This document shows, in pieces, positions 19,215 through 27,222 of a DNA stretch of 32,517 nt; position 1 is the stretch's first letter; every line of letters starts with the position of its first letter. This DNA comes from Deltaproteobacteria bacterium. Its GTDB lineage: Bacteria > Desulfobacterota > Dissulfuribacteria > Dissulfuribacterales > UBA3076. The stretch lies in the NCBI GenBank assembly GCA_030605675.1, contig JAUWHV010000124.1, positions 1 through 32,517 on the forward strand. The letters are read 5' to 3'. Under the pieces are notes generated by a model. That model was not told the DNA's origin. It was given only the letters and a program-made list of their open reading frames with translations, and did no database searches. The position numbers were made by a program, and so were the translations under genes.

Positions 19215-20153
19215 TCAGGTGATTTCCCTGAGGCATACTTTAAGATTTTCAGGATCCTCTCCCTGAAATACTGAAGCAGATCCTTCAGGAAGACACTTCC
19301 TTATCAGGTTGCAGAGCACTTTTTTTGGGCCAAGCTCAATAAAGTTTGATATTCCGTCCCTGTCCATGTTGATTACGACTTCATACCACCTGACAGGCGA
19401 GCATATCTGTTTTTTCAGGAGGGTCTTAATTTTCTCCGGGTCTGATTCCGGCCTTGCCGTAACATTACTGTAAATCGGGATTTCAGGCTCACAAAAAGAG
19501 ACTTTATCCAAAATTTCAGAAAAGCGCCTTGATGCCTCCTCCATAAGGGGGCTGTGATAGGCACCGGAAACCTTCAAGGGAATAGCCCTTGCTCCTTTAG
19601 CCTTAGCTCCCTTACACAAATCGCCGACCATGTCTGTTTCTCCGGTGACTACGATCTGCTCCGGCGAATTGTGATTAGCCAGGACCAGGATGCCTTTTTT
19701 TGCAAGGGGCGCAATCAATTCCTCCAACTCTTTTCTGCTGAGACCGATCACAGCAGCCATGGCCCCGGGGTTTTTATCTCCTACCTCCTTCATAAGCCTG
19801 CCCCTGGCATGGACCAGCTTGAACGTGTCTTCAAGGCTAATGACCCCGGCGGCCCACAGTGCCGGATATTCTCCCAGACTGTGTCCTGCTGTTGCTGCCG
19901 CCTTTAATCCCGTGTTTTTGGCGGCCATGCAGCAAATGATCTCTACAGCGGTCAGACAAGGCTGAAGATTTTCAACCCGGGTGAGTTCTTCCAGGGGTCC
20001 TTCAATGCAGAGCTTCTTCAGGGGAAGCCCTGTCAACTCTTCTGCCACGGAAAAAACATGTGCCGCATCAGAAACTGTTTCCAATAAGGCCTTGCCCATT
20101 CCAACATATTGAGAACCCTGCCCCGGAAAGACAAAGGCCAGATTACTTTTCAT
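19215..20153 (-). CDS. fabD: Malonyl-CoA-ACP transacylase
   Basis: FVFPGQGSQYVGMG, an active-site GHSLGEY, and full-length FabD resemblance. Confidence 0.9.
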   Translation of the reverse strand: MKSNLAFVFPGQGSQYVGMGKALLETVSDAAHVFSVAEELTGLPLKKLCIEGPLEELTRVENLQPCLTAVEIICCMAAKNTGLKAAATAGHSLGEYPALWAAGVISLEDTFKLVHARGRLMKEVGDKNPGAMAAVIGLSRKELEELIAPLAKKGILVLANHNSPEQIVVTGETDMVGDLCKGAKAKGARAIPLKVSGAYHSPLMEEASRRFSEILDKVSFCEPEIPIYSNVTARPESDPEKIKTLLKKQICSPVRWYEVVINMDRDGISNFIELGPKKVLCNLIRKCLPEGSASVFQGEDPENLKVCLREIT

Positions 20154-20172
20154 TATTAGAAATCCTCCACGT

Positions 20173-20403
20173 GGCTAAAGTTTGAAGTGCCTAAAGTGCC
20201 TAAAGTGAGCTAAGGTTTGAAGTGATCTAAAGTGACTAAAGTTTTGGTATACTATCTGATTAGCTCTCGGGCCAACTACCATTCAGAACTCATGAATCAA
20301 CGGCTAAGATTTTCGGTGAACCCGTGAATGGTTACTGATTTTATAATAGATGGAGCGTAGCGATTCCTTAACTTTAGGCACTTTAGCTCACTTTAGGCAC
20401 TTC
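20173..20403. repeat. Inverted arms of GCCTAAAGT-type tandem repeats enclosing a conserved box
   Basis: Left arm at 20173-20243 and right arm at 20368-20403. Positions 20184-20198 (gaagtgcctaaagtg) are the perfect complement of 20389-20403. The internal box at 20283-20335 is homologous to 25707-25781. Confidence 0.75.
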
Positions 20404-20407
20404 TCTT

Positions 20408-21508
20408 TCATCCACCTATGCTGGACATGCTACGGGTGCAAGATAGTCTTTCTTTGTCCGAAAACTTTAATCCTTTTGGCTTTTTTAATACGGCCTGAAG
20501 GAAAAAAAGGGCCAGCTCCTCTGTGTTCAGTCCCCGGCGCAATGCCTTTTTGACATCTACCTCCTCGTCAGAGAACAGGCATAATCGAAGACGTCCCTCT
20601 GCAGTGAGACGCAGGCGGTTACAACTTTCGCAGAAATGGTGGCTTAAAGCGCCGATAAATCCCACACTTCCCAGGGCCTTATCCAGCACATATTCATTTG
20701 CCGGTCCCGCACTGTGCGATTTGGGCAATGGGCGCAGCTTTCCAAATGCGTCCTCTACCTGATTTCTGATCCTATCACAACCGACAAATCTGGCCGGACT
20801 CCAAAAAATATCATGGCCGACAGGCATGAACTCTATAAAACGAACCTGCACGGGATATTTCAAACTCAGTCCTGCCAGGGCTGTTATCTCGCTGTCATTT
20901 ATGCCTTTCATGATCACTGAGTTGATTTTTATGGGGGAAAATCCTTTTTCCAGGGCCTTTTCTATGCCCCGCCACACCTGCTCAAATAGATCAAAGCCGG
21001 TAATATAGGCAAATCGTTCCGGGTTCAGGGAATCAAGGCTGATGTTAATATGCCTGATGCCTGCTTTGAAGAGGCCATCTGCATAATCTTCCAGCAGGAC
21101 TCCATTTGTGGTGATGCAGATTTCTTCAAGCCCGTCAATCTCAGTCAGTCTTTCTGCAAGGCTTATAAGGTCCCGCCGGACCAATGGTTCGCCACCTGTA
21201 AGGCGCACTTTTGTGACACCAATGGCCGCCAGGGTGCGGCAAATTTTAAGAATTTCTTCATAAGTGAGGATTGAATCATGAGGCAACCAGGAAAAGTTAA
21301 TCTGAGGCATGCAGTACTGACATCGAAGATTGCATCTGTCTGTTACTGAGAGCCTGAGATAGGTCAACCGCCTGCCGTATAGGTCAACCAGGGTATTTTT
21401 TTCTTTTTTCACCGGATCAGCCAGCTTACCATAAAAGACTTTTTTATTAGCCACAGACCCACACAGACGAAATAGAGTTTCATGTGCAGGTGCGGAGAAA
21501 TACCTCAC
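20408..21508 (-). CDS. moaA: GTP 3',8-cyclase MoaA (radical SAM)
   Basis: CNLRCQYC radical-SAM cluster motif and a C-terminal CxxCxRLRLTAEGxLxxCL motif. The GTG at 21508 gives an unusually long N-terminus, so an internal GTG (MKKEKNTLVDLYGRR) is an alternative start. Confidence 0.85.
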   Translation of the reverse strand: MRYFSAPAHETLFRLCGSVANKKVFYGKLADPVKKEKNTLVDLYGRRLTYLRLSVTDRCNLRCQYCMPQINFSWLPHDSILTYEEILKICRTLAAIGVTKVRLTGGEPLVRRDLISLAERLTEIDGLEEICITTNGVLLEDYADGLFKAGIRHINISLDSLNPERFAYITGFDLFEQVWRGIEKALEKGFSPIKINSVIMKGINDSEITALAGLSLKYPVQVRFIEFMPVGHDIFWSPARFVGCDRIRNQVEDAFGKLRPLPKSHSAGPANEYVLDKALGSVGFIGALSHHFCESCNRLRLTAEGRLRLCLFSDEEVDVKKALRRGLNTEELALFFLQAVLKKPKGLKFSDKERLSCTRSMSSIGG

Positions 21509-25706: not shown

Positions 25707-25781
25707 TCAGAATTCACGAATCAACGGTTCAGATTTTCAGTGAACCCTGAACCTCTGAACCTGTGAACTCTGAACGGTTAC
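25707..25781. repeat. Conserved box plus TGAACC-type tandem repeats overlapping the cbiA 3' end
   Basis: tcagaattcacgaatcaacggttcagattttcagtgaacc aligns with 20283-20322. Here it is followed by an expanded ctgaacctctgaacctgtgaactctgaac tract and then ggttac. Confidence 0.65.
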
Positions 25782-27222
25782 GAACAGAATGCTGTTGCGC
25801 TTCAGCTACGAAGTTCCCGGCAGCATCAGGGCAACTTCCAAAATGTAGATGTATATAGCCGGCAAGCGTGTTGTACCACGTATAACCTTCAGGGGGAAGA
25901 AGGCTGTTGCCGGCATTTCTGACCTCGTAGGCAAGGATTATTGATTTATCCTGAGAAATTGGCTCGAGTAAATTGGAATAATGGAATTCGTGTCCTCTAA
26001 TTCTTGTGCCGGCCGGCCCGAGTATAGTATTCTTTTTTAAAATGATTTCCCTGTAGCCAAGGGCACAGCGCCTTTTCTGCATATTCACCATAAAAGGGAA
26101 CAGGCCGACCCAGGGATGTTCCTGCCCTGGCTCTTCTTTTTGAACCAGGCCCCGGCACAGGTAGAGAAATCCTCCGCATTCTGCATAGATAGGGAGATTT
26201 CCCTGGGCCTTGGTCAATATTTCTTCTCGAAGGTCCCTGTTTTTTGAAAGGGCTTTGGCGTGCAGTTCAGGGTATCCGCCTCCAAGATAAAGCCCCTGTA
26301 TTCCAGGAGGCAGGGAATGATCTCTAAGGGGCGAGAAAAATACGATTTCCGCACCGAATTTTTCAAGAATGTCAAGATTTGCCTGGTAATAGAAACAAAA
26401 GGCCTCATCCTTTGCCACTGCAATACGTACCGGACGCGGATGGGAAATGCCGGGGCGTTTTATTACCCTGCTTTGATCAGCCGGACGTATGTCTTTCCTG
26501 TTTTGCCGGATCGCTTTTAGCAATGAATTTAAATCGCAGTCCTTTTCAAACCAGGTTCTAAAGAGGTCTGCTTGCTTTGTTTCAAGACCGCCTTCCTCAG
26601 CAGTTATGAGTCCCAGATGCCTTGATGGAAGCTGCAGGTCCTGATTACGAAACAGAGTGCCGGTCCATGACAGTCCCAGAGGAGACAGTGCCTCTTTCAA
26701 AAGCGCAGCATGCCTTTTACTACCCGTTTTATTAAGGATTACTCCGGCAAAGCGTAAGCTGCTATCGAATTTAAGATAGCCATTAACCAGTGCGGCCACA
26801 CTCCTTGCCATACCAATGACATCCACTATCAATAGAACAGGCAGATCCAACCACTTTGCAATTTCTGCAGTAGAACCTGATTCAGAAGTTCCGCCGGCAC
26901 CATCAAAGAGGCCCATTACCCCCTCAATAACTGAAACATCCGCCCCGGTACAATACTGCGAGTACAACTCTTGCACTGAAGACTTACTTAAAATCCACCC
27001 GTCAAGGTTGTGAGAAGGGCATCCGCACACTGAGGCGTGGTGTCCGGGATCAATAAAGTCAGGGCCCACCTTAAAAGGAGCCACCTTAAGGCCCCTTTTA
27101 TTCAGTGCTGCCATTATGGCAAGGGTCACAGTTGTTTTCCCGCAGCCGCTATGTGTACCGGCAATTACAATACCCGGAAGGGGAGAATCGGGAGTAGATC
27201 GTTGTGCAAAAGGCCCTAGCAT
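25729..27222 (-). CDS. cbiA: Cobyrinate a,c-diamide synthase family amidotransferase
   Basis: N-terminal P-loop (GTHSGCGKTT) and a C-terminal glutamine amidotransferase domain (YAECGGFLYL, GHEFHYS). The last 20 or so codons lie in a repeat element. Confidence 0.85.
   Translation of the reverse strand: MLGPFAQRSTPDSPLPGIVIAGTHSGCGKTTVTLAIMAALNKRGLKVAPFKVGPDFIDPGHHASVCGCPSHNLDGWILSKSSVQELYSQYCTGADVSVIEGVMGLFDGAGGTSESGSTAEIAKWLDLPVLLIVDVIGMARSVAALVNGYLKFDSSLRFAGVILNKTGSKRHAALLKEALSPLGLSWTGTLFRNQDLQLPSRHLGLITAEEGGLETKQADLFRTWFEKDCDLNSLLKAIRQNRKDIRPADQSRVIKRPGISHPRPVRIAVAKDEAFCFYYQANLDILEKFGAEIVFFSPLRDHSLPPGIQGLYLGGGYPELHAKALSKNRDLREEILTKAQGNLPIYAECGGFLYLCRGLVQKEEPGQEHPWVGLFPFMVNMQKRRCALGYREIILKKNTILGPAGTRIRGHEFHYSNLLEPISQDKSIILAYEVRNAGNSLLPPEGYTWYNTLAGYIHLHFGSCPDAAGNFVAEAQQHSVRNRSEFTGSEVQGSLKI

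Follow-up and report, generated by a model that had tools for sequence, protein, structure and literature searches.

A probable nested insertion of two genus-specific repeat families between moaA and fabD in a Dissulfuribacterales genome

Pneumococcal BOX elements and the BIMEs of E. coli are modular, mosaic intergenic hairpins with variable internal units, and they are often co-transcribed with operons. The REP/BIME hairpins of E. coli can uncouple genes within an operon. The Correia elements of Neisseria are small inverted repeats located at gene junctions. They carry a defined 26-bp end and TA duplications, are transcribed as long hairpins, and can affect mRNA processing. A simpler kind of intergenic repeat is the cyanobacterial STRR, which consists of tandem heptamers. 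Seep-SRB2 bacteria are uncultured sulfate-reducing partners of methane-oxidising archaea at methane seeps, and to our knowledge their genomes are known solely as fragmented metagenome bins.

Three further systems are relevant to the present locus. Guaymas Beggiatoaceae contain intergenic heptamer repeats of a single unit, TAACTGA, which are arranged as direct repeats (PMC4679880). MITEPsy1 is a MITE that is mobilised in trans by the insertion sequence ISPsy2, with which it has only the terminal inverted repeats in common (PMC3189936). Elements of the IS66 family have ends GTAAGCG... and GTAACCG... (PMC12888890), and their target duplication is 8 nt long (PMC10017437).

Here we analysed a DNA stretch of 32,517 nt (the window) from a draft genome of 1.66 Mb, which is 88%-complete and consists of 179 contigs (G000). 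In the window, an element of 236 nt lies between moaA and fabD. Our results suggested, with a probability of about 80%, that this element is a lineage-specific, non-coding mobile or repeat insertion in which two genus-specific dispersed families (family A and family B) are nested, rather than a dedicated regulatory signal. Both repeat families are undescribed, but they are conventional kinds of small mobile or palindromic repeat.

The moaA gene (21508..20408 on the minus strand) encodes the domains Radical_SAM and Mob_synth_C, and fabD (20153..19215, minus strand; domain Acyl_transf_1) is located downstream of it in the same direction. The element is thus found within a co-directional gene pair, as the first-pass annotation had described. 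The moaA-fabD spacer in the window is 254 nt, with a gap of 4 nt between the end of the element and the moaA stop codon. The pieces of the element and the features around it are listed in Table 1.

Table 1. Positions of the moaA-fabD insertion, its component parts and related features in the window
Feature	Position	Strand	Evidence
fabD start codon (20151-20153) and kept ribosome-binding region CGTGGAGGATTTCTAATA, GGAGG at 20164-20168	20151..20171	-	Conserved in the empty sites of relatives
Whole lineage-specific insertion, 236 nt	20172..20407	.	Alignment breaks against relatives; stands in place of about 12 nt of ancestral spacer
fabD-side arm, 35-nt unit 1 GCTAAAGTTTGAAGTGCCTAAAGTGCCTAAAGTGA, polymorphic	20174..20208	+	TRF period 35; absent from Logan contig SRR14876850_142682
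fabD-side arm, 35-nt unit 2 GCTAAGGTTTGAAGTGATCTAAAGTGACTAAAGTT = family-A left arm	20209..20242	+	Pairs with 20363-20393; homologous to family-A arms
A-type loop, left part TTTGGTATACTATC; last bases TGATT (20257-20261) = left target copy	20243..20261	+	Uninterrupted loop ...GGCATGCTATCTGATTTTATAATAGATGGAGCGTAGCGATTCC... in G002:C49 (L106) and G015:C71 (L027)
17 nt AGCTCTCGGGCCAACTA where the nested element is truncated on its left	20262..20278	+	No other match in genome or genus
Family-B right-hand 57 nt: core positions 26-70 and right terminal repeat GTGAATGGTTAC (20324-20335)	20279..20335	+	nhmmer HMM 26-70, E = 8e-11
A-type loop, right part: second TGATT (20336-20340), then TTATAATAGATGGAGCGTAGCGATTCCTT	20336..20369	+	Matches to family-A copies
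moaA-side arm AACTTTAGGCACTTTAGCTCACTTTAGGCACTTC	20370..20403	+	100% identity to family-A arms in G000 (C138, C142), G002, G004, G010, G013, G014
moaA stop codon TGA	20408..20410	-	ORF 20408..21508 (-)
Second family-B copy in the window, short form, about 4.6 TGAACCY heptamers, right end GAACGGTTAC	25707..25781	+	Overlaps the 3' end of a CobB/CobQ-type ORF

The start of moaA is uncertain. There is no ATG among the candidate starts in the first 50 codons (window 21412-21508), and the candidates are GTG at 21508, 21454 and 21412 and TTG at 21367. The MoaA proteins of relatives can be aligned only from residue 13-29, which also makes the annotated start uncertain. An exact-protein database look-up of MoaA with three candidate starts gave no match.

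The anatomy of the hairpin was determined piece by piece. The arms had been described as built from 9-mers, and TRF detected period-9 arrays on either side of the loop (20185-20242, 6.4 copies; 20371-20402, 3.4 copies). The perfect 15-bp pairing between 20184-20198 and 20389-20403 was also reproduced (15/15). Two longer inverted pairings were observed, one of 23 nt at 96% (20194-20216 with 20380-20402) and one of 31 nt at 84% (20220-20250 with 20363-20393). The heptamer CTAAAGT occurs 10 times in the window, and 8 of these occurrences fall in 20175-20396. The expectation from shuffles was 3.66 ± 1.92, and none of 100 shuffles reached 10, so the repeat content is above chance. The left arm is longer than the right one, as had been noticed, but its extra unit is a 35-nt tandem duplication (TRF period 35, 20174-20242, 1.9 copies, 88% matches, score 110) and not a single 9-mer. 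The minus-strand RNA is predicted to fold at -71.6 kcal/mol (z = -3.5).

The same spacer was compared among relatives. In 11 congeners, about 30-43 nt separate moaA from fabD, which directly follows it, and the spacer reads TGA-GGTTGGCTAATT-CGTGGAGGAATTCTAATA-ATG. The site is also empty on a JGI metagenome contig that represents a further species of the genus (90-93% identity). When aligned to the window, all 12 relatives show the breaks exactly at 20171 and 20408. No clean target duplication was found at the outer junctions of the 236-nt insertion, where 12 ancestral bases were replaced and not split. In G010 (L013, G010:C121:59214-60700) moaA does not stand before fabD; the sequence diverges past TGAGGTTAGCCACG, where repeat-like DNA of about 300 nt and another ORF are found.

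A heptamer, TGGCTAA, is present at the fabD-side junction (window 20172-20178), and it is also present, in the opposite orientation, within the 12 nt replaced by the insertion (GGTTGGCTAATT; TTAGCTAA in L143). Its occurrence both at the junction and in the empty sites may be a coincidence or may reflect a palindromic target. As a clue to the insertion mechanism it was considered and set aside; TGGCTAAAG is also a mere variant of the 9-mer unit.

The outer part of the element belongs to family A, a palindromic repeat whose typical copies are about 110-165 nt long with arms of 34-40 nt. When the whole element was searched against the genus, exact copies of the 34-nt arm (100% identity) turned up at many loci, in G000 as well as in other species, and they usually form inverted pairs separated by about 30-60 nt. 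Window positions 20345-20403, the end of the loop (ATGGAGCGTAGCGATTCCTTA) plus the 34-nt arm, are a dispersed repeat with 97% identity to G002:C209:987-1045, and many other family-A copies match them. A typical A copy of about 163 nt has asymmetric outer ends (CCTAAyCCGGAyAArCCGGAACAGTGCC... and ...GGCACTTCAAACTCAATTAA), 9-mer-periodic arms and a 55-nt centre (GTGGTGCGCGCTTTCAGCGCGGTTAATATAAATAGATGGAGCGAAGCGATACCTTA). Family A gave matches in 17 of 17 congeners, up to 25 in a single genome, and in 0 of 43 genomes of other genera.

These matches bear on whether the palindrome was made locally, by replication slippage of the 9-mer-built arms in situ. Such an origin would agree with the period-9 substructure, with the unequal arms, with the one-unit and two-unit forms described below, and with the varying order and number of units among family-A copies. 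However, many unrelated loci in many species share the 34-nt arm and the adjoining 25 nt in identical or near-identical form, and therefore the arm arrived ready-made. Local slippage as the source of the palindrome is largely refuted by this and is highly improbable; it accounts solely for the 35-nt change in copy number. The slippage proposed by the first-pass annotation consequently holds for this change in copy number, but not for the arms, which were inherited from the dispersed family.

The 55-nt centre of family A can be found in both orientations. It is inverted between the orthologous loci G004:C187:6580-7110 (L087) and G002:C209:718-1246 (L026), whose flanks match at 88% over 530 nt, and among 32 unique copies it lies one way in 19 and is flipped in 4. 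Together with the polymorphic arm length, this is what an invertible (inverton-like) or phase-variable cassette would produce, in which recombination between the arms flips the loop and the arm length switches a property of the operon. However, the flips are a minority and lie between species, with none seen within a population. The loop has no promoter consensus, and no recombinase is linked to it. In the window copy both arms are of one type, so that an orientation cannot be defined. A switching cassette of this kind is very unlikely at the present locus, and we return to the insertion of dispersed families as the preferred reading.

No target duplication was seen at the canonical family-A copies inspected. 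The composite A copy at C167 lies at a TTATA site with a TATA/TTATA duplication, and other copies are without duplication. No mobilising enzyme or partner element was found for family A. The 'empty sites' of the C138 copy in G004 and G007 were rejected as evidence because both element ends are kept there, so they may be deletion scars and not virgin sites. A RAYT/IS200 link was also rejected for family A: across 12 genomes, the surroundings of the 12 Y1_Tnp loci inspected contain neither A arms nor B ends.

Y1-transposase (RAYT-like) ORFs of about 320-340 aa occur in the genus at 1-3 per genome (G004:C155, G001:C4, G006:C115, G017:C9, G016:C60; L120-L125). The flanks of six long Y1 genes were read, and GGGGACG-type repeats flank these instead. 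The GGGGACG.../...CGTCCCC inverted motifs around the Y1 ORFs are a separate REP-like system in the genus.

The loop of the element contains the right-hand part of family B. A box in the loop had been reported to recur at 25707-25781, and this was confirmed: 20283-20323 is 87.8% identical to 25707-25747 over 41 nt, and GGTTAC closes both copies. Searching the genome for the box, as the first-pass annotation had proposed, revealed a genome-wide repeat and not a pair of loci, with 29 copies at E<1e-3 in G000 (BLAST and nhmmer, HMM from full copies), several of them at contig ends. The family-B consensus consists, in order, of the left end GTAACCGTTCAC, (GGTTCAR)n, the core GTTGTTTTCTATTCTCATGCCTTCTCCATTCAGAACTCACGAATCAACGGTTCAGATTTTCGGTRAACCC, (TGAACCY)n and the right end GTGAACGGTTAC. 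The core of about 70 nt is conserved, and the copies are non-coding and 127-237 bp long. A CobB/CobQ-type ORF (25729..27222, minus strand) stops inside the second B copy of the window, so its last ~17 codons are element sequence.

Family B was found in 17 of 17 congeners searched (genus UBA3076), with 1-25 copies each among the matches listed. Outside the genus, it was found in 0 of 23 genomes that belong to the same family and order. A 27-nt core pattern was searched in 185,579 species genomes (one per species) and gave 32 loci. Most of these loci come from MAGs that carry the label Deltaproteobacteria or Thermodesulfobacteriota; E20SeepSRB2, UBA3076 and the Guaymas bin B4_G9 are among them. 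Those accessions are Seep-SRB2/'Ca. Desulfomithrium', which is GTDB genus UBA3076 of the order Dissulfuribacterales (Murali et al. 2023, PMC10553843). The text of that paper is without any word starting with 'transpos' or 'mobile'.

Three contigs with the box (L046, L051 and L054; JAIWHJ01, JAIWFS01 and JAIWEZ01) are in low-coverage MAGs labelled Promethearchaeota, 'archaeon' and Gammaproteobacteria. The L051 contig looks like mis-binned Seep-SRB2 DNA, as judged from its 93-96% identity to contig C10 of G000. A GC-rich palindrome, CCGCCTGCCTCGCAAGCTTGGCGAGCGGGCAGG, was observed at one same position (CCATTC|AGAAC) in three B copies, namely G000 C10:8258-8292, G000 C127 at about 410-445, and L051. 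This palindrome may represent a third nested repeat of very small size.

The nesting of one element in another explains why the conserved box lies inside the repeat arms. The uninterrupted A-type loop is preserved in two congeners (Table 1). In the window, the loop reads ...ACTATCTGATT + (AGCTCTCGGGCCAACTA + 57 nt of B ending GTGAATGGTTAC) + TGATTTTATAATAG..., which is a 74-nt insert with TGATT on either side. The statement that two different conserved modules combine with repeat-built arms in this genome therefore stands. The B fragment (20279-20335) has the right end only, its left half is replaced by 17 unique nt, and the duplicated TGATT provides 5 of the 8 expected bases, so the window copy is not a full MITE. 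With one terminal repeat and 5/8 duplicated bases, transposition of this fragment itself is putative. Searches of the genome and the genus gave no further match for the 17 nt at 20262-20278. No other copy of the A/B composite was found in the genus, and an exact 26-mer across the A/B junction gave no match in a metagenome scan.

A composite of this kind could be produced by a chimeric join at the repeated arms of a metagenome-assembled genome. The genome is a 179-contig draft, repeats break its contigs, and several B copies lie at contig ends, as such an artefact would lead one to expect. However, an independent single-run assembly, in which Logan contig SRR14876850_142682 carries an identical FabD, agrees with the window from the fabD flank through one arm, the loop and the B fragment into the far arm. 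This contig lacks exactly one 35-nt arm unit (20174-20208) and is identical through the loop in a 184-nt alignment. Over a further 1993 nt the Logan contig and the window are 99.8% identical. The moaA-fabD adjacency is also as in relatives. The probability that the element is an assembly artefact is close to negligible.

The Logan contig also showed that the arm length varies, as the first-pass annotation had anticipated, with one 35-nt unit in the contig and two in the window. Its junction CAAACCTTAGCCACGTGG is absent from the window. Since every word in a de Bruijn contig comes from reads, we assume that the reads contain CAAACCTTAGCCACGTGG. On the basis of the two assemblies, two arm-length alleles appear to exist.

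The ends and target sites of family B point to a known class of element. Both 12-bp ends (GTAACCGTTCAC ... GTGAACGGTTAC) are present in 19 of 72 hits from G000 and related genomes. Clean 8-bp AT-rich target duplications were found at the B copies L005, L052, L055, L066 and G000 C32, and near-perfect 8-bp duplications at L006, L009, L062 and L068. The duplicated sequences include AAATATTT (G000 C32), GAATGATC, CTTTTATT, AATTCTTC and GAATAATA, in addition to others. The ends GTAA(C/G)CG and the 8-bp duplications of family B fit the features of the IS66 family.

Of the 18 genomes of the genus, 9 have the IS66 transposase domain (PF03050), whereas the 88%-complete assembly of G000 contains none. 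In G010:C60, a 519-aa ORF with PF03050 at 110 bits is located between GTAACCGTTCACTCCCCCC and an imperfect inverted copy, GTAATCATTCACTCCCCCC. In a longer view, these ends are GGGTAACCGTTCACTCCCCCC and inverted AGGTAATCATTCACTCCCCCC, which match at 17 of 19 positions. Compared with the family-B end, the left copy agrees at 12 of 12 outer bases and the right copy at 10 of 12. A second copy, 79%-identical, is on G010:C95, and this contig begins exactly with GTAACCGTTCACTCCCC. A 94%-identical fragment of the IS66-family element was found on G002:C602. Judged by these sequence features, that is, inverted terminal repeats, a duplication of fixed length, small non-coding copies in large number and an IS66-family element with like ends, family B is a MITE. 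Since the IS66-family element and B share ends only, B would be a MITE that borrows its transposase in trans. We found no description in the literature of family B or of an IS66-derived MITE like it.

The position of the element right behind moaA had raised the idea of a terminator, an attenuator or an mRNA-stability hairpin. A selected RNA hairpin in the moaA-fabD operon could act in any of these ways, or as an RNase target or a 3'-exonuclease barrier which uncouples the two genes. It would account for the strong stem 4 nt past the moaA stop, for the intact ribosome-binding site of fabD, and for the many similar hairpins at gene junctions in the window. Comparative support is absent, however, as the insertion is missing from 12 of 12 orthologous sites examined. 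No intrinsic (Rho-independent) terminator, with a GC-rich stem and a U-run, was found in 19900-20700, where the stem is followed by AAACUUUAGCCACG and by no U-run, and the same interval has no promoter consensus. Rfam 15 at the gathering score gave no match at the element and two tRNAs only in the window. The fabD gene is single-copy in the assembled genome, and for this reason strong termination or polarity before it would probably be costly and is unlikely.

The copies of family B were also analysed for signs of a regulatory role. Of the 29 copies, 25 lie between genes; a crude ORF map puts the coding share of the genome at about 86%. Those between co-directional genes are in the opposite orientation in 10 cases and in the same orientation in 5, so there is no orientation bias relative to the genes. 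In 33 unique copies the B core is conserved at 90% or more per column at most positions, with no stable consensus fold (alifold -1 to -2.7 kcal/mol) and no compensatory pairs. A structured RNA in the B core was rejected because of the weak alifold energy and the absence of such pairs. Copies of B are about 90-99% like the consensus across species, while the MoaA proteins of the same species are only 80-96% identical. This high conservation could reflect selection instead of recent spread.

Taken together, a selected RNA hairpin is unlikely, and the negative function tests and the empty sites favour a passive, recent insertion of what looks like selfish DNA. On an mRNA spanning moaA and fabD, pairing of the arms would produce a stem of about 30 bp immediately behind the moaA stop. 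An effect on mRNA stability or polarity is possible as an incidental by-product of the insertion.

The history of the locus may be described in the following steps. The AT-rich loop of an A copy would have received a family-B copy at TGATTTTA, and the left end, left arm and first 25 core positions of this B copy would have been lost later. The composite, or A before B, would have settled behind the moaA stop and ahead of the ribosome-binding site of fabD; comparison with relatives places this event after the species split from the sampled congeners. The long inverted arms would then destabilise the locus. One arm would have come to exist in one-unit and two-unit (35-nt) forms, as the two differing assemblies suggest.

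Hairpin elements at a shared position are not limited to the moaA-fabD spacer. At two further loci, different hairpin elements were observed at one intergenic spot in different species. The first is the TTATA site (G000 C167:2530-2747, L128 q631-847; orthologues L148-L154), which is empty in G010, G005 and G009. G000, G013, G002 and G003 each have a different hairpin element there, 199-504 nt long and flanked by a TTATA/TATA duplication. The elements in these four species have the ends ...TTGAGCG/CGCTCAA..., and the TTATA site is an insertion hot spot common to several element types. The second is G000 C87:5777-5976, where an unrelated GAAGGCT-heptamer hairpin lies in the spacer orthologous to the L087/L026 inverted-centre locus. 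A more active role could be proposed for the hairpin cassettes (family A and its relatives), as recombination-active modules whose loop inversions and arm-length changes heritably and reversibly vary operon coupling, and which are spread and exchanged by transposition that repeatedly hits one and the same set of intergenic sites. We consider this quite unlikely.

The whole genome of 1.66 Mb contains 873 short tandem arrays, mainly with periods of 7 (330), 14 (138), 8 (109) and 9 (69), and 54 distinct heptamer units were counted in them. This load is unusually high for a genome of about 2 Mb. The genus-wide repeat system is of somewhat more interest than the moaA-fabD element itself. The two families are undescribed and genus-specific, and their nested copies and unstable arms help to explain breaks in the Seep-SRB2 assemblies. 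The repeats mark recent genome change, and both families could be used as strain markers for the genus. They also give a caution to annotators, as many 'regulatory-looking' hairpins and odd gene tails are mobile DNA. The IS66-family link provides a directly testable pair of MITE and transposase.

In comparison with the described systems, G000 resembles the Beggiatoaceae and the cyanobacteria with STRRs in its abundant short tandem arrays. In contrast to both, it has 54 heptamers and not one, and its arrays at the loci examined are inverted pairs inside dispersed elements and not direct repeats upstream of starts. As in BOX elements and BIMEs, the present elements are modular, hairpin-forming and intergenic with a variable number of units, but there is no sequence relation, family A has 9-mer arms and a 55-nt loop in both orientations, and no RAYT link was found. 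Like a Correia element, the present element is a small inverted repeat at a gene junction; the TA duplications and the 26-bp end set Correia elements apart. Family B is similar to the MITEPsy1/ISPsy2 type in being small, non-coding, multi-copy and mostly intergenic with 12-bp ends, and its partner here is of the IS66 family. It differs from this type by the variable-number TGAACCY arrays between its ends and core, and by the one-ended copy in the window.
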